64,000 nt of DNA from an uncultured Clostridia bacterium (GTDB lineage Bacteria; Bacillota; Clostridia; TANB77; CAG-508). Both the position numbers and the translations under genes were made by a program. Location of the stretch: assembly GCA_946401865.1 (NCBI GenBank), contig CAMIVO010000002.1:2781-66780 (forward strand), written 5' to 3'. Below the pieces are notes generated by a model, which did no database searches, was not told the DNA's origin, and worked only from the letters and a program-made list of their open reading frames with translations. Within the stretch, counting starts at the first letter, position 1. Each line of letters begins with the position of its first letter. Below, in pieces: positions 3,088 to 54,687 of the stretch.

Positions 3088-6000
3088 TTAGCTAAACAAC
3101 TTCATTATCTCCTCTTGACTAAATTTGCTAATAAATGAGGTTTTCGTAGAAAGCATATTATCAATTAAATCTGCCTTTTTTTGTTGAAGTTCATAAATCT
3201 TTTCTTCTATTGAATTAGATGTTATTAATTTATAAACTTGAACATTGTTTTTTTGACCAATTCTGTATGCTCTATCAGTTGCTTGGTTTTCTGCTGATTG
3301 ATTCCACCAAGGATCATAATGTATTACCATATCTGCACCTGTTAAATTAAGTCCTGTTCCACCTGCTTTTAATGAAATTAAAAATATTTTTATTTCATCA
3401 TTTTTATTAAATTCTTCTACTAATTCTATTCTTTCGCTGACTTTGGTTTCTCCTGTAAGTTTAAAATATTTTATATTTCTTTCAGATAATTGTTTTTGAA
3501 TTATTTCAAACATTGAAGTATAACCTGAAAATAATAAAATTTTATGGCCTGCAGAAATTGCATCTTCAATTATTTCCATACATTGGTTAAGCTTACTAGA
3601 TTCGCCTTTATAGTTATCTATAAATAAGCTTGGGTGACAACATATTTGTCTTAATCTAGTTAAAGCTGCAAGTATCATAATTTGGCTTTTTTCAAACCCA
3701 TTTACTTTTATTTGGTCTGCAACTTCTTGTTTTGCTTGTGCTAAATATGTCATGTATATTTTTTCTTGTTCTTCTTCCATTGTATTATTTAGTACTGTAA
3801 TAGTCTTTTCTGGAAGTTCTGTTAAAACTTCTTTTTTAGTTCTTCTTAAAACAAATGGCTCAATAAGCATTTTCAATTTTGCCATTACATCTTGATCATT
3901 ATCTCTTACTATTGGCGATTCATACGAGTTCTTAAATTTTCTATATTGGAATAAATATCCAGGCATTATAAAATCAAATATTGACCATAATTCAGCAAGA
4001 GAATTTTCAATTGGAGTACCAGTTAAAGCAAACCTAGTCTCTCCTTTTAAACTTTTAATAGCTTTTGCATTTTGTGTTCTACTATTTTTTAAATATTGTG
4101 CTTCATCTGCAATTACGTATTTAAAATTATAATTTTTTTCTTCATATTTTTCGCTATCTCTTTTTAATAAATCATATGATGTTATTATTAAATCATATTT
4201 TTCAAGATTTTGAATTTGTTGTATTCTTTCATTCGCTTTTCCAGAAACAACCTTGACTTTTAAACTTGGTGCAAATTTTGATGCTTCTTGTAACCAGTTT
4301 AGAGAAAGCGAACTTGGTGATATAACAATACTTGTTTTTCTGTTTTCTTTGTTTTCATTCACATATGCAACTAATATAGATAATATTTGTAAGGTTTTTC
4401 CAAGACCCATGTCATCTGCAAGTATACCTCCAAATCTATAGTTATCTAAAGTTTCTAACCATTTAAACCCTATTTTTTGGTACTCTCTTAAAGTAGCATT
4501 TATATTTCTTGGAATTTCTATCTGATCATCTATATTATCTTTTTCAAGATTTTCTATTATTTGTTTATATTCACCGTTTTTTGTTGTTTTAGTAGTTTTA
4601 AATTTTTTTAATAATTCATTTAAATATAAGCTTCTATTTACTGGTAATTTTATTGTATTATTTTTTATATCTTTATAGTCAATATCCATTCCAGATGTAA
4701 GCTTATCTAAAAACTCTATGTCCTCATTTTCATCTAAATTCAAAAATTCACCATTTTTTAATCTATGGAATTTTTTCTTTAATTTATATTTTAGCATAAC
4801 ATCTTCTATTTCATCTGGTGAAATATTTAATTTATCTAAATCAATATTTAAAAGATTATTTTCTACTTTTACTCCTAAAGTCCCAATTTTAGGCTCTCTT
4901 ATTTGTTTAGTTTTAAAATTATCTGTAACTAAAACTTCAAATTTTTGCATATAAAAATTTATTTCATCTGTTAGAAAATTATATATTTTTTCATCATCTG
5001 GTAAAATAAATCTGTTATTTTTAATATCTAACATGAATCCCGTTTTTTGAAAAACATTAAGATTTCTATTTTCTTCAAGCTCATTTCTTAGAGCTTTTAC
5101 ATTGTTTTTCTTTATTATAGGATTAAATTCTTCATCTCCATAGCAAAATTTTACATCCATTGTTAAAAAATTATTATCGTCAAAGTCTAAAAACACTTTA
5201 ACTGCCAATTTTTGAGGTTTATATTGTTCAAGTTCTTCTGGGAGTATTCCTTGAATCTTGACAGAATTCTTTATTTTTGGCATAACCACAGAGTAAAAAT
5301 CTTTTAAATCCTCTTTTCGAAGTAGCATTTCAGATGTATAATTTTCTCTATATGATTTTATTAATTTTAAGGTAGAATTATTAAAATCTTTACTACATCT
5401 ATATAATTTATTATCTTTTAGTACATATGTATAATTTTTTCCATTAAATATATGAATTTTAAAAATATCTACATTTGGTGTTAATGATAGTTCGTTTTCA
5501 TTTAGTTTTGATAATTCAAATTCTATATTAGGATTATTTTCTACAAATTCTAATTTTGTGTTTGTATAATCATATGAAAATTGAACTTTTTTATTTTTTA
5601 ATATATCAAAAGCCTCGTCCAATAAGCTTTCTCCTAGTACAATAACAGATTTATTTATAGAAGATCCTGAGTAATAATTATACCTATTTGACATTGTTGA
5701 ATATTTTAAAATTTCAGCATATTTCAAAATAAATTCTAAAAGGTCTCTTGAGTCCTCTTCAAAATTTTCTCTTGAATGAACAAATTCTAATTTATCTCCG
5801 TATTTAGCATATTCATTATTTACTACTTTTGAATAAAATTCTGTTAAATCCTTTATTTTGTACATTCTACTAGTTCCTATTTTAAAGTCTAATTTCATTC
5901 CATATGAAAATTTGTCATATTCAAGTCTTGTTTCTATTTTTACTTTTTCATTTCCTTGTAAATAATTATTTTGCTCTTTATTTATTTCCTCTAATTCTTC

Positions 6001-11660: not shown

Positions 11661-11900
11661 GTTACAATTCACGTTTTATTATAAATTAGCCCTGTCTAAA
11701 GTTTATATATTTATTTTTAAAGTAAACTTGTGCGGGGACCACTTTCTTACAAAATGTTTTCAAATATGAGAATTTTTAGGAAGCTTGACTTCCATTAAAA
11801 AAAATTCCATATTTGATTACATTTTTGTTAGAAAGAATGGATTTACGCATAAAAATAAATATATAAACTTGGTGCAGACTAATTTATAGTAAAAGGTTAC
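11661..11900. repeat. ~240-bp palindromic-ended repeat element, copy 1 (right end degenerate)
   Basis: Shares a ~175-bp near-identical core (ttatatatttatttttaaagtaaacttgtgcggggacca...ggatttacgcataaaaataaatatataaac) with 56207-56450; overlaps stop codon of glucan-synthase fragment and lies upstream of pyrG. Confidence 0.6.
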
Positions 11901-12386
11901 ATTTCCACTTCTATTTCATAAATTTTGCCATCATCTTGAAGTTTTATACATTTATCTTTTGCTTCTAGCCCATTAACTTTAAAATAAGTAATTCCACAAT
12001 TTTTTCTATTTAGATTTTTTACTTTTATATTATATATGCTTCTTCCAAATTTATATTTTATAATATATTCTTTCCACTCTTTTGGAATACATGGATTTAT
12101 TTTAAGTATTCCATTTTCAATTTTTAGACCGAGAATATATTCAATTCCAGCTTTATAAAACCAACTTGATGATCCTGTATACCATGTCCATCCGCCTCTT
12201 CCGGCTAAATTGGATTCACCATAAATATCTGCTGGAATTACATATGGCTCTACTTTATATTTATTAGCAGAATCTTTATTTCTTGAGTGTTCAATTGGAT
12301 TTATAATTTTATAAAAGTCTAAAGCCTTTTCTCCATTTTTTAATAAGCACTCTGCAATAATAGCCCAAATTGCACCATGTGTATGC
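11897..12386 (-). pseudogene. C-terminal fragment (~163 codons) of GT84/GH94 glucan-synthase gene, separated from the rest by the inserted element
   Basis: Minus-strand translation ...HGAIWAIIAECLLKNGEKALDFYKIINP...GRGGWTWYTGSSSWFYKAG... = conserved GH94 C-terminal block that should directly follow GGQYTH (found at 26835); stop taa at 11897-11899. Confidence 0.75.
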
Positions 12387-12540
12387 TGTTGTTACTGGCA
12401 GTTTTTAGATTAACAACTTAATTTTGAAAAGAATTGATATTTGGCTAGGCACACGAATTTGAAATGTATGAGGCGTACTCTTGTACGTTGATTACATTTC
12501 AAATGAGTAGTAACGACGCCAAATGCAATTATCTTCAAAA

Positions 12541-14170
12541 TTACACAGCCTTTTTCTCATAAATCTTTTTAGCTACACTAAAATTATTATTTAATTCTTG
12601 TAGTGGTTTAAAGTTAAAATAAATATCAACTTGTTTGTCACTATGAATTTCAATTTTTTCTATAAATTCTCTAATTATTTCTTTAGTAGGATTTTTTATT
12701 TTTAAAAATTCTTCTACTAAATTATCTAATCTACTTTTATTCTTGTCTATATCTTTTTCTCCAGATAATTCTTGTTCAAATTCTTTTATTGATTGTTCGT
12801 AACTTTTCACAATTTCTTTTATTCTCTCTGCATTTTTCATATATTCTTCAAGAGATATAATGCCTGCAAGCCTATCTTCGTACATTACTTCTAATTTTCT
12901 TGTTTCTTTTTCAATATTTTGTTTAAAAGAATCAATTTGATTTTTCAAGTCAAATTCTTGGACTTGTTTAGACTTTGTTTGTTTTGCAATTTCTTCTAAT
13001 TTCTTTTTGTTTTTATATTCTCTGCAAACCTCTCTTAAAACCTCTAACATCTGTTCTTCAAAAACTTGATAATTGAAATTGTGTGGTGAACATACATCAA
13101 ATTTTCCAAATCTTCCATATCTTTGACATCTGCCATAAATATTTCCGTTTTTATCTGGACTTCTAATTCCAATATAGCCTCCACAGTCATAACATCTAAG
13201 TAATCCTTTAAATAAATAATCATTTTGAACTACTCTTGAGCCTTTTGTTGCTTCAATTACTCTTTTTGCTCTTTCGAAATCTTCTTTACTAATTATAGCT
13301 TCATGCATATTCTCTACTTTTACCCAATCTTCTTCAGGTAAATTTATAAATTTCTTTGATTTAAAACTCACCTTTTTTCTCTTGCCTTGTATTACTGTTC
13401 CTGTATATATTTCATTTGAAAGAATAAATCTTACAGTAGATTGTTGCCATAGCCCATAAGTTAAAGATTTTGCTCTTCTATTTCTTTTATTATAATCTGA
13501 CGGAATTGGAATTTTCTTTTTACTTAAGTAATCTGCAATTTGCATTGTACCAAAACCTGCTAAATATTTTTCATATATCAGTTTTACAACATTTGCTGCC
13601 TCTTTATCTATTATTAAATGGTATTTGTTTTCTGGATCTTTTTTATAGCCATAAGGTGCTGTTCCTAAATATTCTCCATTATTTCTTTTTGCTTGTAATA
13701 CACTGTTTATTTTCTTTGATGTATCTTTAGCATACATTTCATTTAATATTGATTTAAACGGTGCTATATCGTTATTTGAATTATCGAAAGCCGTATCTAT
13801 ATTGTCTAATATTGCAACAAATCTAACTTCATGTTCTGGAAAATAATTTTCAATATATAAACCTGATTGCACATAGTTTCTACCAAGTCTTGATAAATCT
13901 TTTGTAATAACCATATTTATTTTACCGAGATTCAATATCTGCAATCATTCTATTAAATGAAGGTCTATCAAAACTTGTCCCACTTACTCCGTCATCAACG
14001 TATTCTGATATAAAATTTAATTTATTCTGTCTAATATATTGCATTAGCAAAGTTCTTTGGTTACCAATACTTTCACTTTCTTGATACTTTTCTTTTTCTT
14101 CATCTTCTCTTGAAAGTCTAATGTATATACCTACTTTATAATCAATATTATTCATTATTGTATAGCTCAA
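12541..14170 (-). CDS. large serine recombinase (TnpX/TndX-like), split by a +1 frameshift near 13930-13944
   Basis: 13922..14170 encodes resolvase catalytic N-domain (GIYIRLSREDE...); 12541..13944 continues with VITKDLSRLGRN, recombinase domain, zinc ribbon CYDCGG...C and coiled coil; removing one c in tctCggtaaaata restores ...DIESGKINMVITKDLSRLGRN. Confidence 0.8.
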
Positions 14171-14656
14171 CTTCTACCTCCTTTTTGCTATAAAAATATA
14201 TGAGATAATATTGATACTCTTGATTTTCATTATACCATATTATCTCATCAAATACCATTGTTTCATTTTATTTTTTTATTGTTCTTAAGCAATAATTTCC
14301 AAAAGCTCTTTCTATAATCTTTTCCAATGCCTCTCCTTTTTCATTAAAAAATATATTTATCTTAAAATCATTCTTTTTCTTATATTTCTTTTTTTCTTCC
14401 AATAGCCTCACTCCTCTTGTTTTATTTTTTCCAAATTTTAGTTTTTTATACTGTTACAAGTGGATTTGCTCCCATATGAGATTTGCCCTCATTCCTCTTT
14501 TTAGAGAATCGCCCCTTTACATCACGTTAGCCAGACGAAAGTATCATTATTTGTGCTTGCAACTACTATTCAATTTTCAATGTGCATTTCCATTTTTTGA
14601 CTTTTTCTACTTTTTATAGTAAAATTATGTCAATTAAGTGTTGTATACATTATAAT

Positions 14657-14677
14657 TGTGAATTTTAGAAATTCACA
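14657..14677. promoter_or_regulatory. 21-bp perfect palindrome (candidate operator) upstream of 14714 gene
   Basis: tgtgaattt-tag-aaattcaca read directly. Confidence 0.35.
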
Positions 14678-14713
14678 CTGTACAATCTCAAAAAATTTTT
14701 TATTTATTTTAGG

Positions 14714-15751
14714 TTGTTTGATGTGGAGGTGTTTTATTTGAGTTTTAAACTAGCTTTTGATAAAAATCTCGGACTAGAATTATTTGTTTTTAAACGCATA
14801 TATTATGATAAAAGTAAAAAGATATTTTTTTCATCATATAGAACTGAGCATATGATTGACCCAATAGGTTCTTTTCTTCTTATATTTTTAAATACAAATT
14901 TTGAAGATGATGAAGATTGCAGATCTTTTGTTTTTTGGTTTTGTTTTGAAAGCTTATATTATAGAAGACATCCTGAAACAAAGAAAGCAAATCATAATTC
15001 ATCAAAACATTTAAGGCTTTCATTCTCTGAATTTAATAATGAATTAAATGAAATTGTAAAGGAATATAAAGAAGAATTTTTATACCTTAAATATACTTTA
15101 TTAAAAAATCTAAGATTACCATATGATACTGATTTTTTCAAAAAAATTGAAGAAGAAGCAGAATTTACTCCAGAAGACATACAGGAAATGAGACAAGATG
15201 AAAAAAGCTTTTTAGAAGATAAATCAATTAAATATAATGAAACAGAAATAAATGGATTTATGGAGAAATTAAATATACAATTCGAGACTTTTGGTCTAAT
15301 TTTTGATAATATAAATATTGAAAAGTATAATATTCCTTACTACTTTGAGAGTGAAGATATTTGGGCTATAATAGCTCTTTTATTTAAAGAATTTATGTCT
15401 GATAATCATAATACTATAAGACAATGCCAAAATTGTGGATATTACTTTGTTCCATCAAATTTAAAAGAAACTAAATATTGCAATGTAGAATATAAAGAAA
15501 CTGGCAAAACTTGTAGGCAAATTGGAAAAGAATTAGCTTATAAAAAATCTCTAAAAGAAGATACTCTTTTAGATAAATATAGGAAAAGATATATGTCTCT
15601 TGCAAGCTCTGTTTCACATTATGGAACAGATACTGCCATTACTAGATTTGAAAAGTATAAAAAAGATGGAGCTGTAATGAAACAAAAATATCTAAATAAA
15701 GAAATTACCCCAAAAGAATTTGAAAAATGGATTTCAGATAGCAAAAAATAG
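14714..15751 (+). CDS. hypothetical protein with C-terminal Cys4 zinc-ribbon (CQNCGYY...KYCN...C); true start uncertain (ORF-track start is TTG)
   Basis: 345-aa ORF; zinc-ribbon motif RQCQNCGYYFVPSNLKETKYCNVEYKETGKTCRQ; convergent with 899-aa gene. Confidence 0.45.
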   Translation: MFDVEVFYLSFKLAFDKNLGLELFVFKRIYYDKSKKIFFSSYRTEHMIDPIGSFLLIFLNTNFEDDEDCRSFVFWFCFESLYYRRHPETKKANHNSSKHLRLSFSEFNNELNEIVKEYKEEFLYLKYTLLKNLRLPYDTDFFKKIEEEAEFTPEDIQEMRQDEKSFLEDKSIKYNETEINGFMEKLNIQFETFGLIFDNINIEKYNIPYYFESEDIWAIIALLFKEFMSDNHNTIRQCQNCGYYFVPSNLKETKYCNVEYKETGKTCRQIGKELAYKKSLKEDTLLDKYRKRYMSLASSVSHYGTDTAITRFEKYKKDGAVMKQKYLNKEITPKEFEKWISDSKK

Positions 15752-15790
15752 AACAGGAAATCACCTCTTGTTCTATTTTTGGTCTTGCAA
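15752..15790. terminator. bidirectional hairpin between convergent genes
   Basis: agaacagg aaatcacctc ttgttct followed by T-run. Confidence 0.4.
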
Positions 15791-18490
15791 TTAGCCTATT
15801 TCCTTATCTTTTTCATTCTGCTGTTCCATAATTTGCGAAACTTGATAATTAATTTGGCTCGTCCTTATTGTAGTAGTTGCACTAACTCCACTTTCTATTA
15901 ATCCTTGTTTATTACAAATCATATTTGCAATTTCTTCACTTTCAAATAAATTATCTCTAATATCTTCTTCACTTAAACCATTTATAGTTTTCAAGCTATG
16001 ATAGATTTGTCTTAAAACTTCCAGATTTTTTTCATTTATTTCTACGTTTCTAACACCACTTATTAATTTATCAATTAATAATTCTTGCCCCATATCATAA
16101 GAATCTGACTCTATTGATATATCAGCATTTTTAAATAATCCTATTACCCTACATATATTTTCTAAATCATATTCCAATAGACCTTGTTCATAATCCTCAT
16201 TTTTAGGATAGGCAGATTTTAAAAATGTAATTATGTCATCGATTTGTTTTGAATTGAAACTATGTTCTAATAAGAAAAATCTAATAGGATCAGGAATTAC
16301 ATTATCTGTATCTTGAAAACTATCGAAATAGTCGGATAATCTTTTGCTATTATTTTTATTTTCTAATCCTGTTAGACATTTTTTTAATTTTTCTTCTAAC
16401 TCATTTCTTTGTTCACTATTTATTTCGCTTGTATTTTGCAGTTTTTCTTGCATAATTGAACAAATTCTTTTTGCCATCACGTCGCTTATACCTAAAAGTT
16501 TTTGATTATTATCATCTAATAGCATTAAACATATATCAAAATTCGTGTCATTAAAAAGCATTGAGCTATCAGTTTCTAGAAACTGATTAATACAAGCCCT
16601 TAATAAGAGATTAGTTTTGTCTTTTTCTTTAGTAAAAGCAAGTAATGTTTCGACATTAAAGTTTGGGGAAATCCTTATATTTCCATAATCAGAATTCATT
16701 ATACAATCTAATATTTCATATTCATTTTCTATTTCATATCCATATTTTTTTAATGTACTAATTGCTACACCCACATCATCATATAAATCTAAATTATTAA
16801 AAATCAATCCATCTTCAATGTTTTCTCTTACTTCATGTGGTAACTGTCCTATTTTTATTAATAATCCAATATCATCAATTTTATCTGTATATGTTATGTA
16901 AGTAGCTATATTATTTTCCAGTCCAAATAAATTACTTATGTCATTTTTTGATAGTGAAGAATAATCAATGTTGTTTAATATCTCAATAATACTTAAAATA
17001 CTGTCTGGATTTATCTGTAATAAAGGAACATTGTATATATATAGTATTTTTTGTAAATCTTCATTAGGAAGATTTATCTTTGACAAAACTTCTAATAAAT
17101 TATCATTTAAATAAAACATTGTATTTTCATCATCTTCTACTTGCTTATCATATTGTGTTTTATCAAATTTATTCCCAACCTTTTTATTTAAAAACTCTAA
17201 TATACTTGAATAATTATCTTCATCATTAAGTACATGATATTGAGCAAGAAAGTGAATAATATCACTAGTATTCGTTACTTCTTTTTCATTCATTATTTCT
17301 TGAAAAATATCAAATGGTATGCCACCTGTCAAAGACATAATTTCTTCAAAATTTGATGAATTCTCTTTATTAATTTCATACCAACCTTTAATAAGCAATT
17401 TTATAAAATCACTATAACCCCATTTAGAACAAATTTCTTTAATTTTGCCATTTGACTTTTTGCTTAATTCTTGTATATCTTCTACACTTAAACAAGAGAA
17501 TACTTGTTGTACATTATCTCTACGAATATTTGAAAAATCATTTTTTTGTAACCATTCATATTTAAGTTTATTCTCATAATATATTGCATCCATTATTGAA
17601 CAATCAACTGAATATAATGCAGGTTCTTCTCCATTAGTATGTTGTTTAATACCAGTTTCATCAATAGGATAATTAATATGATTTGCTAGTATGTTTCTTA
17701 ATTTTTTAGACGCTTGTGGTAAATATTCTGCTGTATTATTTTTAACTCCAAGTTGATTTCTTACATTAGGTAAATCTTCAGTCAAAATCATTCTCAAATG
17801 ATATCCTAATGTTTTTTCACACATATCTACAAATTTATCTTTTGAACCAAAAAAATACTCCCTTACAGCATCTATATCTATATTTTTATTTTGCAATGCA
17901 TACATAATACTACGAGTAAAATCTCCTTCACTAATATATGAATTTTGTTCATAGTATCCATTATTGTTTGCCAATTCATCATTTTCTTGTTCAGATATAC
18001 AATTTATTCTATTTCCTTTTTGTATGTAATTATTGATACTCATTTCTGCAAACAAATCTACAAGTGCTTCTTCAACAACGGCATTAACTTCCCCCTTTGA
18101 AATTAAATCCGAAAAAGCATGTGCATATTCATGTATAATAACATGTATTAGATCAATAGTATTACTATTATTTCTACAATAATTTTCTGTTAAACATATC
18201 TTTTCTTCTGTAGGACTATAGTATGCAGAACATGCTGCAGCATTTTTTGGATCTCTATCTATTTCTATTGTTAAAGTAGCAATAATGTATGTGATTTTTT
18301 CAATAATATCTTGTCCAACTATTTCATTTGCAAATGTAAGAATTATATTGCCTGCCTCTTCTATAGCATCATGCATTTGTTCAATTGTTATTGGTTCTAA
18401 ATCTTGTGTTGGTTCTTCTTTTTCTTCTATATCATCAATTTCCCAATCATCATCATTGTTTTTTATAGTTCCTTCATCATTACTATTCAT
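15791..18490 (-). CDS. 899-aa protein with N-terminal SprT-like/zincin HExxH domain (IDLIHVIIHEYAHAF), acidic N-terminus, long helical C-terminal region
   Basis: HEYAH motif in SprT-like context (TLLHEMIHA-type); no TM; last gene of a 5-gene minus-strand operon on the element. Confidence 0.5.
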   Translation of the reverse strand: MNSNDEGTIKNNDDDWEIDDIEEKEEPTQDLEPITIEQMHDAIEEAGNIILTFANEIVGQDIIEKITYIIATLTIEIDRDPKNAAACSAYYSPTEEKICLTENYCRNNSNTIDLIHVIIHEYAHAFSDLISKGEVNAVVEEALVDLFAEMSINNYIQKGNRINCISEQENDELANNNGYYEQNSYISEGDFTRSIMYALQNKNIDIDAVREYFFGSKDKFVDMCEKTLGYHLRMILTEDLPNVRNQLGVKNNTAEYLPQASKKLRNILANHINYPIDETGIKQHTNGEEPALYSVDCSIMDAIYYENKLKYEWLQKNDFSNIRRDNVQQVFSCLSVEDIQELSKKSNGKIKEICSKWGYSDFIKLLIKGWYEINKENSSNFEEIMSLTGGIPFDIFQEIMNEKEVTNTSDIIHFLAQYHVLNDEDNYSSILEFLNKKVGNKFDKTQYDKQVEDDENTMFYLNDNLLEVLSKINLPNEDLQKILYIYNVPLLQINPDSILSIIEILNNIDYSSLSKNDISNLFGLENNIATYITYTDKIDDIGLLIKIGQLPHEVRENIEDGLIFNNLDLYDDVGVAISTLKKYGYEIENEYEILDCIMNSDYGNIRISPNFNVETLLAFTKEKDKTNLLLRACINQFLETDSSMLFNDTNFDICLMLLDDNNQKLLGISDVMAKRICSIMQEKLQNTSEINSEQRNELEEKLKKCLTGLENKNNSKRLSDYFDSFQDTDNVIPDPIRFFLLEHSFNSKQIDDIITFLKSAYPKNEDYEQGLLEYDLENICRVIGLFKNADISIESDSYDMGQELLIDKLISGVRNVEINEKNLEVLRQIYHSLKTINGLSEEDIRDNLFESEEIANMICNKQGLIESGVSATTTIRTSQINYQVSQIMEQQNEKDKEIG

Positions 18491-18499
18491 TTAATACTC

Positions 18500-18733
18500 C
18501 TAATCTATCCTAATATTTGGGTTCATCTCTTGTGTTGTTTTCCATTCAATTCCATATTTTTCTTTTAATAATTTCTTTTTATAATTTTCAAAAATATGTA
18601 TATATCCTAAACCTTTTTTTATGCCTTTATCTTTTAATATTTTGTCAGTTTCTAACTCAACTTCCTGAAATATTTTTTTATATTCTTCTTTATCTTCTAC
18701 ACTATCATGTTTGAGCATAATATAAACCTCCAA
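18500..18733 (-). CDS. hypothetical small protein
   Basis: 77-aa ORF tightly packed in operon. Confidence 0.35.
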   Translation of the reverse strand: MEVYIMLKHDSVEDKEEYKKIFQEVELETDKILKDKGIKKGLGYIHIFENYKKKLLKEKYGIEWKTTQEMNPNIRID

Positions 18734-18740
18734 TCAATCA

Positions 18741-19193
18741 TTATCTTTTTATAAGATTTAATATAAATCTTTTTATTTTCTTAAATATAGAATCTTCCTT
18801 ATATTCTACCAATGCTGTTTGTGAATGTTGATTAAATTCAATGTTCTTCTGTTTATTTTTAAATAAATTGTCAGGATTATACTTTTCTCTCAGTTTTATT
18901 TGATATTCATTCTCATTATTATCGTATATCTTTTTTAATCTTTGTTTTTCTGTTTCATCCTCACACCAATATTGTAGATTAAGCAGTGCAATTAATGCTA
19001 ATGTTTCTTCTTTCAAATTCTGCTCTTTAATTGGTCTATTTGGATTTATTTCCTTTGAGTAATTTATATCTCTATTATTTTTAAAATACTCCCTTAATTT
19101 TTGTGGTATTTTATTTTTGTTATATTCATCTAATAAATTTATAAAAGTATCTATTTCCGTATATGCTTGTCTTGTTGCTATTGAAAGACTCAT
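18741..19193 (-). CDS. hypothetical protein
   Basis: 150-aa ORF in operon. Confidence 0.4.
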   Translation of the reverse strand: MSLSIATRQAYTEIDTFINLLDEYNKNKIPQKLREYFKNNRDINYSKEINPNRPIKEQNLKEETLALIALLNLQYWCEDETEKQRLKKIYDNNENEYQIKLREKYNPDNLFKNKQKNIEFNQHSQTALVEYKEDSIFKKIKRFILNLIKR

Positions 19194-19212
19194 ATATTCC
19201 CCTTCTTTCGTT

Positions 19213-20283
19213 TTATTGTTGTATATCCTCTATTTTTTCTGTCTTATCATTTTGATGTTCTTGTATTATCGTTGTTGCAACTTTTTCTACTTGCTCAGTT
19301 CTTACAGATAAAGTCGTTGCATCAATTGCACTTTCCAGTAAATCCATTCTTAACATACTAAACATATCTGCTAAACTTGAATCACTTGTTTCTTTTGGCT
19401 TACTACCATGAATGCTATTAACTAAATCATTCTTTCTTTCATCATCTAGTTTATATCTTGTATCAGTTGTTATAAATTCTGCTTTAATATCTTCTAATTT
19501 TTCTGGAGCTGTTTGTGTGATATATTTTTCAAACTCATCTTGAGCAAGTTGAATATATTCATGCATTTTTCTTATATCTTCTTCTGTAAATTCAGCATCT
19601 TCTTTTCCATTTGCTCCATATCTTAATTCATATATTCCATCTATAGCTGCACTATACCTGTCATAGTTAGCAAATTTATTAAATCTTGCAATTAATTCAT
19701 TTAATCTATCCATATTTTCATCATTTTGCATACTTATGAGTTCGTCTAATGTTATGCCCATTGATGTACAAAATAGCTTGTTTAATTTATCTTCAACTTG
19801 ATACCTTACCATATCTGTTTGAAAGCTTAAATTAAATGCATCAAATGATGTAGTTCTAATATTATTATTTGCAAATGATTTTGCCATTTCAATTGCAAAT
19901 CTATCTGTAATTGATTCATTTTGACCTATTCCATTTCCACTATGTTGCTGATGTAATCCAACATGACTATTATCAATATGCTTTGTATTATCCCAATCAA
20001 TATACTAATCTAATATGTGTTTTTCTTCATGTAAAATAAGTGTTATTGCATCTCCTTCAGTTGTAATTTGATTTATATTAAATCCTAGTGTTTGAATATT
20101 AGGATTAAAATATGCTAATCCATGTGAATCATCAAGTTCTTGTATATCTTTATTTATAATACTTCTTAATTTGTCTTCTAATTCTTCCTTTTTACTTGGA
20201 TCAAAATATCCTTTATCAATCCCCAATGAAATGATTTTATTGCTTACATCTATAAATATTCTCATAAAATCTTCACGAGTCAT
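19213..20283 (-). CDS. HExxH (HEEKH) protein, 357 codons in one frame interrupted by an in-frame TAG at 20005-20007
   Basis: Strong RBS AGAGGTGGAAT-ATG at 20283; ORFs 20005..20283 and 19213..19887 are in same frame; downstream Met lacks RBS; sequence across stop reads HEEKHILD*YIDWDNTKHIDNSHVGLHQQHSGNGIGQ... Confidence 0.5.
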
Positions 20284-20379
20284 ATTCCACCTCTAATTTT
20301 TATACAATATCTCAAAATATATATACCATAAAAATCAAAAATTTTCAATAACTAAAATAACATCATTATTGTTTATTTG

Positions 20380-21567
20380 CTACATCTCCATCTCTAAATC
20401 TTTTTCTTTTTCTTCATGTTTTATTTGTTTTTCAGCATCTAACAAAATATTATTTTCTCGTTCAAAGTCCCTAATCAAATTATTTTCAGCACCCATATCA
20501 AACTTTTTGCAAATCCACGTTATAAATATATCAATAGTTTCCTTAAATCTATCTACTACTTTGTGTAAAAAGCTATTTTCTTTTTCTAATTTATTGATTC
20601 TATTAGTATATTGCCATTCCATTTCAAATTCTTTTTTATTATATTCTTTTTTTATATTATCTACTTCATCGTGTAATTTTTCATTATCAGCTATTATTCT
20701 ATCTCTTTCTTTTTGGTATTTTTCTGCCTCTTCTATAACCTGTGCTTGTCTTGATAATTGCCTATGTAAATTCATATTATCTTGTTATAAATTTTGAATT
20801 ACATTATCCTTTGGTTTTATAATTTCTTCTAGGATTTTTTCATCTCTTTTCCTTGATAATCTATTTATATTAATATCTGTTATATCAGGAATATCTGGTA
20901 ATTCCAATTTCATATTATTCAAAATTTCTTTAGTCTGTTTAAAATTTGTTATTTTCTTATATTCTTCAACAGAATAATGCTCTCTACCTGTTTCCTCTTT
21001 TGACAATCCTCTTTGCAGGTTAAATCCATTTTCCACCATATACTTGTAAAAAGCATCTTGTAGTTGTCTGTAACTGTCTTTTGCTTTCCAAAATTCACTA
21101 CAAGCCAATTTATCAATAGAATTCCCTTTTTTATCTGTTGTATGAATTACTGGTAAAAATACTAAATGCATATGAGGCGTTTGTTCGTCCATATGCACTT
21201 TTGCAGACATTATATATTGTTCTCCTAAGTCTTTGTATTCAGATACAAATTTATATGCGGTTTCAAAAAATCTCTTTGTTTCTTCTTCTCCTATTCCTTC
21301 AAAATAATCATGATCTGATGTTATTATATATTCACAAGCTATATTACTTACTGTTTTAATTTGTCCTTTTAAATTATATTTTTCTTTTATTCTGTCAAAT
21401 TCCTTTTCATAACTATATTGTGGAGTTTTTAGTGAATAGTTTAAATATGATTTTTCTTTATCTATATTTTCATTTGAATAATTTTTATTTCTTCTTTCAT
21501 TGTGTCTAAATATTCCTTTTAAATTTTCTCTTTTGTATTTTGTATTTCTAATAATTGCATAACTCAT
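20380..21567 (-). CDS. MobV-family (Mob/Pre) relaxase; relaxase domain (20785..21567) and coiled-coil C-terminus (20380..20775) separated by in-frame TAA
   Basis: MSYAI(I)RNTKYKR... N-terminus and HMDEQTPHMHLVF HxDE..PHxH motif; ...VIQNL*QDNMNLHRQ... same frame, no RBS before downstream Met. Confidence 0.75.
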
Positions 21568-21659
21568 TTTTTCATCAACCTCCTTTAAATAAATTCTTCT
21601 TTGACTGGCTAACTAATAAGACCTATTCCTCTTAAAATTTTGCTCTTTCTCATTTGTCT

Positions 21660-21750
21660 TGTAACACAACTACAACACTTTTTTATGCTACCGCAAAAAA
21701 GTGTTAGTTGTGGCAGGGAAAAATTTTTCCCCACACCCCATTTTTCCAAA
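21660..21750. promoter_or_regulatory. candidate oriT for the MobV relaxase
   Basis: Imperfect IR caactacaacactttttt / aaaaaagtgttagttgtg with AGTGTT-AG resembling pMV158-type nick region GTGTG-TT; second IR ggggaaaaatttttccc; location just upstream of mob. Confidence 0.35.
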
Positions 21751-21814
21751 AAAATATTTCATAATATTTTTTTGAATTTATCCTAAATTTGCTTTATTGC
21801 AATTTTAGGATAAA

Positions 21815-21858
21815 AAAATCAGCTCCAAAGTAGTTTTCTACCCTAGTAGCTGATTTTA
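21815..21858 (-). terminator. intrinsic terminator after rep-like gene
   Basis: aatcagct...agctgatt hairpin followed by U-run on minus strand. Confidence 0.4.
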
Positions 21859-21877
21859 TATATGCAAATGTATGTAA

Positions 21878-32800: not shown

Positions 32801-34432
32801 TATTTTTTATTTAATCTTTCTACTTCTTCTAGTCCGCTTCGAATAACTTCTTCATCATAATTTTCTGTTTCTTTATTGGATTGTTTACAATCCCCAAGTA
32901 AGCAAAAATAAAGGTTTTGTGATTTGTTTGCAATATAATCTATTTCTAGGTTTTTAAACATTTCTTTTACTTTTTCTCTAGAGTCTACTATTGTAGGTAT
33001 TATTACAAAAGTAGAAGCATTTTCTGGAATTCCACTTTCAAAGTTCATTTTAGGAATTATTTTAGGTTTAACAAGTTTACTTAAAATATATTGTAAAAGT
33101 TGAATTATAATTTCTGAAATTGGAATAAATAAAACTAAAAAACTGCTAAGCTTTATCCACATTTTTTTATTACTTTGTGGAAAATATGTTGCAAATAATC
33201 CTGATATAATAAAAGTTAATACAAATATAGTACCAATATATAATTTTGTTTTTTTATTTTTACTTAATACTTTTTTCTCTTTGCATTGCAATTTTTCCAA
33301 TAAAATATTTATATTTTCATCTTGTAAATAATAACCTATATGCGCTTTTTTACTTTTATAATTTTCCTCATATGCTTTAGTTGCTAATTCCAATATTTTT
33401 TTTGAAATATACATCTCCGAAATTTTGGTCTTTTTGGAAATTTCTTTTATAGTATTTCTATAACTTTCTTTTGTTTTAAAATCCATTTTATCATATACTT
33501 TTGCAGGATCTAGTTTTAATATTTCTTCTACTTTATTTATATTTTCAAATATTTCTAGAAAATTAATTCTTTGTAATTTTTTTATAGATGTAATTGCATT
33601 TCCAATAGCAATTTTATTTATTGCAATATCGAAATGCTCTCTTTTGGTTATTTCTGAAACTGATGCACCTGTTTTCTCAACTTCTTCATTTAATATTTTT
33701 AAAAAATTTTCTGTTTTTTTACCATATTTTTTTAGTTTATAAGACATATATTCAACAAATGGATATTTTATATCATACATTTTTATTTTTATATTTTTTG
33801 AATTTTTATAAATATTATATTTTCTTTCACTTCTAGGTTTTCTTTCTACTAACCTTTCTATCATAGCTTCAACTCTTAATTTTTCATATTGAGAAATATA
33901 AATACTTTCAGCAATTTGCCTTATATTTTCTATAATCGCTATTTGCATAAATATGCCTATATTCCATATTTCATCCATACTTAAATTTTTCTTTTCTTGA
34001 TATGCCTTTAAACTTTCTTCTAAAATCTCTCTACTTATTTTATTTTCTGTATAATTTACAATTTGTGATGCTAATACATATATTCTTGCAAAGCCTTGAT
34101 ATTTTCCGATTTGAAAGTCCTACAAAATTTTTATATTTTTTTAATGTCATTTCTTTTTCAATAGACCTTACCACTTCTTCTATTACATAAAAATTATCTA
34201 ACAACCATTCACCAGCTGGATGAATTTGAATTTTATTTTTCACATTTTCATTTAGTAAATTATATACTTCTTTTATTACCTCATAATTTTCCATCATTCT
34301 TGGTATTGGATAAGTAATTTTATTACTTTTTTGGCAAATTGTATGACCTGCAGCTAATTTTTCTAAATAACCATAAAGCTCTTGCTTATTTAGCAGAGCT
34401 CCTTCAATTGATAATTTTCTATAATTACTCAT
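26835..34432 (-). pseudogene. GT84 glycosyltransferase + GH94 glucan synthase/phosphorylase gene (cyclic beta-1,2-glucan synthase-like), N-terminal ~2530 codons, with frameshifts at ~30985-30992 and ~34060-34080
   Basis: N-term AGEWLLDNFYVIEE and IAIIENIRQIA blocks; GT DxD (ITLDADTDL); DLLASEARQAS; GH94 RENGGQYTH at junction; ORFs 34040..34507 / 30955..33978 / 26739..30992 overlap in different frames; start MSNYRK at ~34432 with GAGGGA RBS. Confidence 0.7.
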
Positions 34433-34481
34433 ATAAATTCCCTCAAATTTTTTAATTGGGGATTTTTTTAGCACAAAAAAA

Positions 34482-34527
34482 CCCATATTTGCATTTATTA
34501 TTTGCAAATATAGGTTTTTTATGCATT
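34482..34527. repeat. 46-bp direct repeat A / bidirectional terminator hairpin
   Basis: cccatatttgcatttattatttgcaaatataggttttttatgcatt; A-run + 12-bp stem + T-run. Confidence 0.6.
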
Positions 34528-34761: not shown

Positions 34762-36207
34762 ATGAGTATTCCAAATGACCAAACCTGGAAAATGAAAGAT
34801 TTTAACTCTGAGATAATCTGGAAAGATTCTCAGAATAATGTTAGCTTTGAAGAATGCAAAGTTAGTAGATTTATTCCATTTAAACATGGAGCAGCTGTAT
34901 TCGGAGGAGAGTTTGGCGATGAAGGTAAAGGCAAAAAAGTCGATGCTCTCGCAGAAAAATACAAAAAAAGTGGACTGAAAATTCTGTCTATCCGAGGACA
35001 GGGAAGTGGAAACGCCGGACATACTGTTGTGGTTGATAATAAAAAATACGATTTCCATTATTTGACTAGTGCAGGTCTTTCAGCAGACATCATGCTTCTC
35101 GGAGCTGGAATGCTGATAGATCCTATAAGAGTTCTCAACGAAATGGAAAAGCTTCCCCTAAAAAAAAGAGAAATAGTTATGGTTGCAGAAAGAGCAACTA
35201 TAGTAACCAATCTTGAGAGGATCTTTGATGGATGGTGCGAAGCACAGCACAAAGATATGAAGTCCAAGGTTGGAACAACAGGTTCTGGAGTTGGACCTGG
35301 AGCAGGAATCCGTGGCTTCCGATTTAACGTAACATTTGCAGATGCGCTTAAGTGCAAATCAGCAGATGAACTGCGTGAAAAATTTCTTAGCAATCCAATT
35401 CTTCCTGTTGACGTTAAGGAAGCTACAAAGCCAGAAGAAACAAACGTTATGCTTACCAAAAAAGTATTTTCTAAAGAATATGTGGAAGAAATCTGGAAAG
35501 CAATCCACAAATTAAACATTGTTGACAGTGTTGAAATTATTCAACGTTGTCGTGAAGAAGGCGGTTGGGCAGTTTTACTTGAAGTAAGCCAGGCTGTTGG
35601 CCTTGATCCTCTCTTTGGAAATGGTGGACATTTCGTAACATCAACTCCATGCACAGATGTTGGTGGAATTGTAGGTAGCGGTTTGACTATCTATGATTTT
35701 CCTGATGGAACAACAATGATGTGCAAAGCTTACACATCTAAAGTTGGAGGTGGTCCTTTTATTGTCAAATTCAATGACGATGAAAAAAATATCGACAAAT
35801 TTATCGATGATATGGTCTGTGAACGCGGTGTTACCACTGGACGTAAGCGTGACTTAGGTTGGTTTGATGGTCCACTAGTAAGACACACCATTGCACTTAC
35901 TGGTGCAAATGTCTCAGTAAACTGCATGGATGTAATAGCTGAACTTCCTGCAGTAACTGATACTGTTAAAGTATGCTTTGCATACAAAAATAAAATAACT
36001 GGTAATGTTACATATAGATGGCCATATAATCTTAACGATTACAAGCCTCTCTATTTATCAATGTCCATAAAAGGAATGAGTAAGAATGATATTATTAAAA
36101 ATTATATCCTCTTAATCGAAAAGGTTATAGGACAGAAAATTTTGGAATATGGAGTAGGCCCTCGTCGCGAAGATTATCGTTCGAGAGATGAAGCTTTTAA
36201 GTATTAA
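34762..36207 (+). CDS. adenylosuccinate synthetase family protein (divergent PurA-like, 481 aa, N-terminal ~45-aa extension)
   Basis: P-loop FGDEGKGK, GNAGHTV, TTGSGVGP, GVTTGRKRDLGWFD (PurA GATTGRRRR.GWLD); GGGGGAAATTAAT-ATG RBS; clearly higher GC/codon usage than neighbours. Confidence 0.8.
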   Translation: MSIPNDQTWKMKDFNSEIIWKDSQNNVSFEECKVSRFIPFKHGAAVFGGEFGDEGKGKKVDALAEKYKKSGLKILSIRGQGSGNAGHTVVVDNKKYDFHYLTSAGLSADIMLLGAGMLIDPIRVLNEMEKLPLKKREIVMVAERATIVTNLERIFDGWCEAQHKDMKSKVGTTGSGVGPGAGIRGFRFNVTFADALKCKSADELREKFLSNPILPVDVKEATKPEETNVMLTKKVFSKEYVEEIWKAIHKLNIVDSVEIIQRCREEGGWAVLLEVSQAVGLDPLFGNGGHFVTSTPCTDVGGIVGSGLTIYDFPDGTTMMCKAYTSKVGGGPFIVKFNDDEKNIDKFIDDMVCERGVTTGRKRDLGWFDGPLVRHTIALTGANVSVNCMDVIAELPAVTDTVKVCFAYKNKITGNVTYRWPYNLNDYKPLYLSMSIKGMSKNDIIKNYILLIEKVIGQKILEYGVGPRREDYRSRDEAFKY

Positions 36208-36231
36208 TCTCATATTATTTCCACCAAAAAG

Positions 36232-36277
36232 CCCATATTTGCATTTATTATTTGCAAATATGGGTTTTTTATGCATT
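36232..36277. repeat. 46-bp direct repeat B / bidirectional terminator hairpin
   Basis: 45/46 identical to 34482-34527. Confidence 0.6.
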
Positions 36278-39447: not shown

Positions 39448-39538
39448 TGGCGGAGCAAGAGGGATTTGAACCCCCGCGCCGATTGCTCGACCTACCAGTT
39501 TTCGAAACTGGACTCTTCAACCACTTGAGTATTGCTCC
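39448..39538 (-). tRNA. tRNA-Ser (anticodon CGA)
   Basis: Own fold: GGAGCAA acceptor/TTGCTCC, anticodon arm CCAGT-TTCGAAA-ACTGG, long variable arm, T-arm GGGGG-TTCAAAT-CCC, encoded CCA. Confidence 0.85.
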
Positions 39539-54374: not shown

Positions 54375-54439
54375 ATATTTTTCTTTTATATTCAATTTAT
54401 ACTTTTCCTTGTATAATATATTTAGGTTTTTTAAAAAGG

Positions 54440-54687
54440 ATTTACCTATAAACCTGTTATAGCATTTTATACCAATTTATGGTATAATTTATGTTAACAC
54501 TGTGGACTCTTTCATTTTCCTTGTAGCTTTGACTACTTTTGAAAGAATATTGCCACAGTTTTATTATTAATTGGTTATTAGTTAGATAGAGCTTAGACTC
54601 TTTATCTCATGCAAGGTTACAAGTAATAAAACTAAGTGGACCATGTCACAAGTGTTATAAATTTATTTGCAAAGGAGTTGATCTTTT
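54440..54687 (+). ncRNA. candidate IS110 bridge/seek RNA in the non-coding left end
   Basis: Extended -10 TGGTATAAT at ~54480; internal repeated gtggac/gactcttt segments; by analogy with IS110-subgroup elements whose LE encodes the guide RNA. Confidence 0.3.

Follow-up and report, generated by a model that had tools for sequence, protein, structure and literature searches.

The locus considered here raises the question of what kind of element a palindromic-ended repeat of about 244 bp represents when it occurs twice, at positions 11661-11900 and 56207-56450, within one 64,000-nucleotide stretch of clostridial DNA (hereafter referred to as the window). The first-pass annotation of this DNA described apparently compensatory changes in the arms of the two copies and proposed that selection for pairing, as in a structured RNA or a cruciform, accounts for them better than a plain MITE does. 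Based on the copy number, boundaries, insertion sites and variation of the family, we conclude with a probability of about 85% that the element is a MITE, a non-autonomous DNA transposon of the foldback type. The family is undescribed, though the element is of an ordinary kind.

Anatomy of the repeat element

Both copies are real and lie where they had been placed, and the repeat family with palindromic ends to which they belong is genuine. Their cores are 93-98% identical in two ungapped blocks (11701-11880 against 56246-56423), and a 14-mer from the core occurs in the window only at these two sites, with 0.17 occurrences expected by chance. The element consists of 14-bp terminal inverted repeats (TIRs), a pair of subterminal arms that are complementary in part, and an asymmetric, AT-rich core of 165 bp, which is bounded by an 18-bp perfect inner inverted repeat.

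Copy 2 (56207-56450, plus strand) is complete at 244 bp and is flanked by the target-site duplications AGAAAGAC (56199-56206) on the left and ATAAAGAC (56451-56458) on the right, which agree at seven of eight positions. Its perfect outer 14-bp TIRs, GTTACAATTCACGG (56207-56220, plus strand) and CCGTGAATTGTAAC (56437-56450, minus strand), are present as originally described. The inner inverted repeat reported for this copy also exists, but it extends over 24 nt (56241-56264 with 56393-56416) and not 25 bp; 18 of these nucleotides are invariant across the family (TTTATATATTTATTTTTA / TAAAAATAAATATATAAA, 56247-56264 and 56393-56410) and bound the highly conserved asymmetric core of the copy (56247-56410, plus strand), at whose centre lies the stem-loop GGAAGCTTGACTTCC (56324-56338). 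The corresponding features of copy 1 (11661-11900, plus strand) are a left terminal repeat at 11661-11673, an inner inverted repeat at 11702-11719 and 11850-11867, and a central loop at 11779-11793.

Each copy folds as a single long hairpin, with energies of -97.9 kcal/mol (z = -13.7) and -81.9 kcal/mol (z = -10.5). No conserved open reading frame (ORF) is present: the longest ORFs differ between copies and are frame-shifted because the length of an A-run varies. A consensus scan for promoters and terminators detected no terminator-like site and six promoter-like matches, a number not clearly above that of shuffled sequences (3.1 +/- 2.3 expected).

Several other element classes were considered and rejected. 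REP/BIME sequences are about 20-40 nt long, GC-rich, free of duplications and associated with RAYT proteins, whereas the present element is 244 bp long and AT-rich, with 8-bp duplications. On anatomy alone, a retron msr/msd was rejected for the lack of an adjacent reverse-transcriptase gene and the multicopy nature of the element, a type I toxin-antitoxin system for the lack of a conserved small ORF, and an IS200/IS605-type palindromic element for the presence of TIRs and duplications.

Host and distribution of the family

The host is an uncultured lineage of low-GC gut Clostridia. The window has a GC content of 26% and carries the housekeeping genes pyrG, nifS, tadA, topA, purA and upp. The best match to its NifS, at 83% identity, is the protein of "Clostridiales bacterium UBA9784", the nearest sequenced relative, and the next matches, at 60-70% identity, belong to uncultured Clostridia from the gut of rabbit, Hadza, mouse and chicken.

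Thirty-five metagenome contigs, of which most belong to a single assembly (JAEEGL01), carry a 21-mer from the core, and clustering of the flanks resolved these occurrences into 33 distinct loci. The 21-mer very often lies within about 100-170 nt of a contig end, a position typical of repeats at which assemblies break. Exact-protein look-ups (nifS with three start codons, tadA and pyrG), made to find strains with an empty site, gave either no record or contigs ending at the repeat or at the neighbouring insertion sequence (IS), and yielded no empty site within the species. Deletion derivatives also occur, namely L006 1-121, L012 and a 61-bp mini-copy at L023 2700-2760. The invariant core 21-mer had no match in 185,579 GTDB representative genomes, and the exact core 21-mer had none in IMG/VR; no match was obtained by blastn of the element against plasmid and phage collections, or by nhmmer with a family profile against 1.36 Mb around nifS from 80 related genomes. 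The nifS and tadA genes of UBA9784 are still syntenic neighbours, and the 112-bp spacer between them lacks the element. As a MITE, the element explains a repeat that fragments the assemblies of this gut Clostridia lineage, and it marks synteny breakpoints between strains.

Mobility and classification

The TIRs are conserved across copies, and 8-bp target-site duplications flank some of them. The duplication is exact in L007 (TGGAGATT, 8/8) and matches at 7/8 positions both at copy 2 and at its ortholog L001. That of L029 (CTTTTATT) also matches at 8/8 positions, but it falls within a longer 17-nt duplication and was not counted as clean. A recognisable duplication is absent from the full copies L031, L021 and L026 and from copy 1, an absence that we tentatively attribute to recombination between copies or to age. 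Taken together, the features of the element match the definition of a MITE (PMC3184786). The suggestion that the repeat is something other than a plain MITE is not supported, given the 8-bp duplications, the presence of at least 33 loci, the scattered intergenic positions and the empty orthologous site in UBA9784; duplications and scattered positions are the very observations that the first-pass annotation had named as speaking against its own reading.

From the TIRs and the 8-bp duplications, we infer that the element is mobilised in trans. A putative transposase would recognise the GTTACAATTCACRG ends and make 8-bp staggered cuts, so that each insertion would be framed by 8-bp duplications. 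The sites used would be short AT-rich spacers between genes, typically those that run from a gene's stop codon to the promoter of its neighbour. No autonomous IS with matching TIRs was found in the window, the 35 metagenome loci, the 80 loci from relatives or the viral contigs. A terminal-repeat 15-mer gave 55 single matches in viral contigs, none with an inverted partner, which were judged to be due to chance, and a literature search with the terminal-repeat string returned unrelated matches only. A 595-aa DDE_Tnp_1 transposase encoded at L023 2934-4721 (minus strand), which we take to be IS1634/IS4-like from its size and sequence, was rejected as the parent, its ends being unlike the TIRs of the MITE. 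This transposase adjoins a truncated copy of the element (4807-4891) that is cut off after GGGGACCACTTTCC.

In relatives, the terminal repeat occurs in the form GTTACAATTCACAG, with three exact occurrences against about 0.01 estimated by chance from base composition. It bounds sister MITEs in metagenome-assembled genomes of related gut Clostridia, which combine the TIR GTTAyAATTCACAG with a palindromic interior: L107 (4649-4833) is 185 bp long with the duplication TGATAAAT (8/8), L059 (oriented start 5278) is 474 bp long with the duplication ACCATTCT (8/8), and L052 (oriented start 11243) is 472 bp long. Their interiors are unrelated to the window family, with no match to the nhmmer family profile, and their lengths differ. 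A TIR common to unrelated interiors implies, as judged from sequence, a putative transposase shared among these bacteria, and the combination of GTTAyAATTCACRG with an 8-bp duplication points to an active putative transposase family. A MITE-like palindromic element with GTTAyAATTCACAG is also found at the contig end of L080.

Small palindromic transposable elements of this type are familiar from other bacteria. Correia elements carry 26-bp terminal repeats and a TA duplication, and a parent insertion sequence has been proposed for RUP. Like the window element, the Correia elements (CREE/NEMIS) of Neisseria are small non-coding MITEs with TIRs, target duplications and many intergenic copies; they form a long hairpin when transcribed, lie near gene ends and can influence neighbouring genes, but they measure about 104-157 bp (PMC3184786). 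The clostridial element has a length of 244 bp, 14-bp TIRs and an 8-bp duplication. The two families share no sequence similarity. RUP of Streptococcus pneumoniae (107 bp) and ERIC/IRU of Enterobacteriaceae (about 127 bp) are likewise imperfect palindromic intergenic repeats of bacterial chromosomes that are classed as MITEs; both are shorter than the window element, and ERIC-type elements have a TA motif at their flanks (PMC3184786). By analogy with other bacterial MITEs, a read-through transcript of the window element would form a predicted RNA hairpin of about 110 bp, which could affect termination or processing.

Arm mosaics and probable recombination between copies

The canonical arms, which we designate Y-b on the left and a-X on the right, are only partly complementary. 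Canonical Y...X arms are found in L021, L026, L025, L033 and L008, whereas copy 1 and L031 have X/X arms and L007 has Y/Y arms. In copy 2 and L001, the arms are flipped to X...Y relative to a fixed core, so that copy 2 reads X-b ... b-Y in place of the canonical Y-b ... a-X. An inverton was rejected on anatomy alone, as X/X and Y/Y copies cannot arise by inversion alone. At L005 5700-6112, X-arm, inner-repeat and partial core sequence is fused to an unrelated sequence (GATTTTGGGGACACTTCC...) in a tandem array of units of about 167 nt, and a further fragment nearby contains GGGGACACTTC, which pairs with GAAGTGGTCCCC; together they form a cluster of rearranged MITE fragments.

About 9 bp have been lost from the right terminal repeat of copy 1, which also lacks a target-site duplication. 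The same insertion in the related strain L031 is 98.7% identical to it over the left flank and core up to about 11893; beyond that point, the right terminal repeat of L031 is intact and is followed by another gene, for a G5/glucosaminidase protein, whereas the window neighbour to the right of copy 1 is the 3' end of a GH94 gene. Because the right arm and flank of copy 1 are therefore not orthologous to those of L031, copy 1 is chimeric, which points to recombination between copies. Such recombination would make the MITE family a substrate for rearrangement as well.

Compensated pairs and the RNA reading

Covariation was analyzed in an alignment of 12 full or nearly full copies, the consensus hairpin of which comprises 70 pairs. 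Fifty-six of the 70 stem pairs never vary and four are doubly changed, a count that was reached by 45 of 500 shuffles, so that the covariation is weak in statistical terms. Some cell-based covariation measures exceed those of every shuffle, an outcome that, according to the warning issued by the tool, can occur for related sequences.

Three compensated pairs with intermediates were seen once partial copies had been added. In the core, pair 81/173 is C-G in most copies, U.G in L032 and U-A in L033, L008 and copy 2, and pair 107/146 is G-C in most copies, A.C in L034 and A-U in L032. The arm pair singled out in the first-pass annotation is A-U in most copies, G.U in L001 and G-C in copy 2. A compensatory arm change thus exists as claimed, but its polarity is the reverse of that implied: AAG/CTT is the ancestral state of the family, present in 10 of the 12 full copies, the orthologous copy L001 shows the G.T intermediate, and the derived GG/CC state belongs to copy 2, not to copy 1. 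Complementarity is actively restored in the stem, and the maintenance of pairing proposed earlier is borne out, with few truly compensated pairs (the three with intermediates).

Template switching in quasi-palindromes is known to homogenise arms, invert the spacer and generate compensatory changes in one step (PMC8794818), and the same products are described in passages of PMC8604942 and PMC7202029. The products of this type of mutagenesis match the X/X, Y/Y and flipped copies as well as the three compensated pairs; it is a mutational process and not an element family, and its action here is read from these patterns. From the compensated pairs, the mosaic arms and the chimerism of the flanks, we infer that the copies, after insertion, would evolve as long DNA quasi-palindromes, in which intramolecular template switching together with copy-to-copy recombination would homogenise the arms, flip the core relative to them and turn single mismatches into apparently compensated pairs. 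Since template switching yields such patterns, selection at the RNA level, previously taken to be indicated by the arm changes, is not needed to account for them.

The element might still be primarily a structured non-coding or cis-regulatory RNA with its stem under selection, mobility being secondary or the RNA being cargo of the MITE, a reading that we consider quite improbable. It would account for the three compensated pairs with observed intermediates, for the excess of single changes leading to G.U on the plus strand (six, against two leading to A.C), for a core far less variable than the arms and for the 19:6 orientation bias relative to flanking genes discussed below. The invariance of most pairs and the shuffle count weigh against it, however, as do the small number of compensated states and their partial inheritance by subfamilies; the strand indicated by the wobble intermediates is not the same in all cases, the RNAs of the plus and minus strands fold equally well, the arms are often poorly complementary (as in X/Y combinations), nothing similar occurs in the closest relatives, and one-step compensation in DNA palindromes is explained by template switching (PMC8794818). 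There is also no Rfam match: nothing was detected at the gathering threshold, and a relaxed E-value gave only plant miRNA hairpin models far below threshold. A strand-by-strand comparison of RNA folding energies revealed no consistent difference. The family is a clear natural instance of the way in which long hairpin MITEs can mimic covarying RNAs, through homogenised arms, flipped cores and pairs compensated in one step, which calls for caution in RNA-discovery screens.

Conservation and orientation of the core

Divergence from the consensus amounts to 6.75% in the left arm and 0.93% in the core, a difference of about 7-fold. At G/C sites, the values are 12.8% for the left arm and 2.4% for the core, and at A/T sites 1.3% and 0.67%, respectively. 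GC-to-AT decay of the GC-rich arm modules, together with exchange of the a and b modules, explains part of the gap between arm and core, but not all of it. In the orthologous comparisons of copy 2 with L001 and of copy 1 with L031, which form a very small sample, the differences lie mainly in the arms.

Variation within the arms is concentrated at G/C and CpG positions, at family alignment positions 12-14 and 29-37, which correspond in copy 2 to window positions 56218-56220 and about 56235-56243. The variants include CACGG changed to CACAG or CATGG, and GCGCC changed to GCACC or ACGCC; at alignment position 22, all four bases are found among the copies. Strong GC-to-AT pressure, or methylation of cytosine by the host, could underlie this focus on G/C.

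Among 25 loci with an ORF of at least 100 aa beside the left end of the element, the gene is antisense to the core in 19 and sense in six (two-sided binomial about 0.015), and in fully resolved copies both neighbouring genes are antisense. Since 40 of the 47 window ORFs of at least 130 aa lie on the minus strand, a strong gene-strand bias, the effects of transcription and replication on this orientation are inseparable. The single tRNA gene of the window (39451-39538) is also on the minus strand.

Neither the gap between arm and core nor the orientation bias would be expected of a purely neutral MITE. Possible causes include concerted evolution among copies, very recent expansion from master copies that differed in their arms, and selection on an orientation-dependent function of the RNA or DNA. 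The core may accordingly be a functional module, such as an orientation-dependent RNA hairpin, an internal promoter or antisense RNA, or a protein-binding site, a proposal that we advance tentatively and regard as unlikely. If true, it would explain the low variability of the core, the arm-biased differences between orthologs and the antisense orientation in 19 of 25 loci, and an orientation-dependent RNA hairpin would uncouple or stabilise neighbouring transcripts.

The abrupt change from a nearly invariant core to variable arms, and the occurrence of the core in both orientations relative to the arm types, would also fit a nested structure, in which a young 165-bp core with 18-bp terminal repeats of its own integrated site-specifically in the middle of a palindromic repeat of greater age, now represented by the arms. 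Such nesting is very improbable, as the window and about 140 kb of loci yielded no element made of arms without a core, and every match to a TIR or arm module sits in a copy that retains the inner repeat at least in part.

The neighbouring IS110 element

An IS110-family insertion sequence (54411-56127, plus strand; transposase ORF 54688-55851) lies beside copy 2 and is not part of the MITE. Its limits are set by L001, which represents the same locus without the IS (an empty site), and the insertion is at TTTTCCTT^TCAA in front of tadA. The distance of about 350 bp originally given between copy 2 and the IS is in fact that to the transposase stop codon; the real gap is 79 bp. The associated idea that copies of the repeat mark IS110 target sites is refuted, as a MITE copy adjoins the IS only in the window, and independent insertions with five different left flanks (the window, L036/L037, L038, L039 and L041) share only the short target TTCCTT^TCAA. 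The target is the reverse complement of the TTGAAAGGAA ribosome-binding region.

The 79-bp proximity is coincidental. That the repeat is a target of IS110 or functionally linked to it, acting for instance as a REP-like landing pad or as the target of a bridge RNA, is extremely improbable. This proximity, seen in the window alone, would fit such a link, and members of the IS110/IS1111 group do target repeats, a passage of PMC3184786 citing IS621 in REP sequences; but the empty site in L001 and the insertions with five left flanks leave only TTCCTT^TCAA in common, the IS copies outside the window are not next to a MITE copy, and the IS ends have no similarity to the terminal repeats of the MITE.

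Other copies of this IS110 element are found in L036-L043. Its target is the Shine-Dalgarno region immediately upstream of a start codon, and CAT (the reverse complement of ATG) occurs 10-20 nt into each of the five left flanks. In the window, the IS lies between tadA and a promoter-like site at 56168-56140; within a few bases of the junction, the left end of the IS has a TATAAT-like box that could re-drive the downstream gene.

Flanking genes and other repeats in the window

The earlier remark that both copies lie close to the stop codon of a minus-strand gene is correct. The gene for a nifS-like cysteine desulfurase (56471-57613, minus strand) has its stop codon 20 nt from the right end of copy 2, and the stop codon of the GH94 C-terminal gene fragment (11897-11899, minus strand) falls inside the last 4 nt of copy 1.

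The GH94 gene itself, a giant gene resembling that for cyclic beta-1,2-glucan synthase, is split into an N-terminal part at 26739-33978 and the C-terminal 164 codons at 11897-12391. The two parts are separated by an insert of about 14.4 kb (window positions about 12385-26825), both junctions of which contain ATACACATG. The insert carries a large serine recombinase with Resolvase, Recombinase, Zn ribbon and DUF4368 domains and resembles a skin-like intervening element. The recombinase is encoded on the minus strand by two overlapping ORFs, 12541-13944 and 13922-14170, which may represent a frameshift.

Elsewhere in the window, two 66-nt direct repeats that are 89% identical (34462-34527 and 36212-36277), each containing a 45-nt palindrome (AAAAAACCCATATTTGCA...TGCAAATATGGGTTTTTT), lie on either side of the plus-strand purA gene (34762-36207) and resemble terminator hairpins of the bidirectional type.
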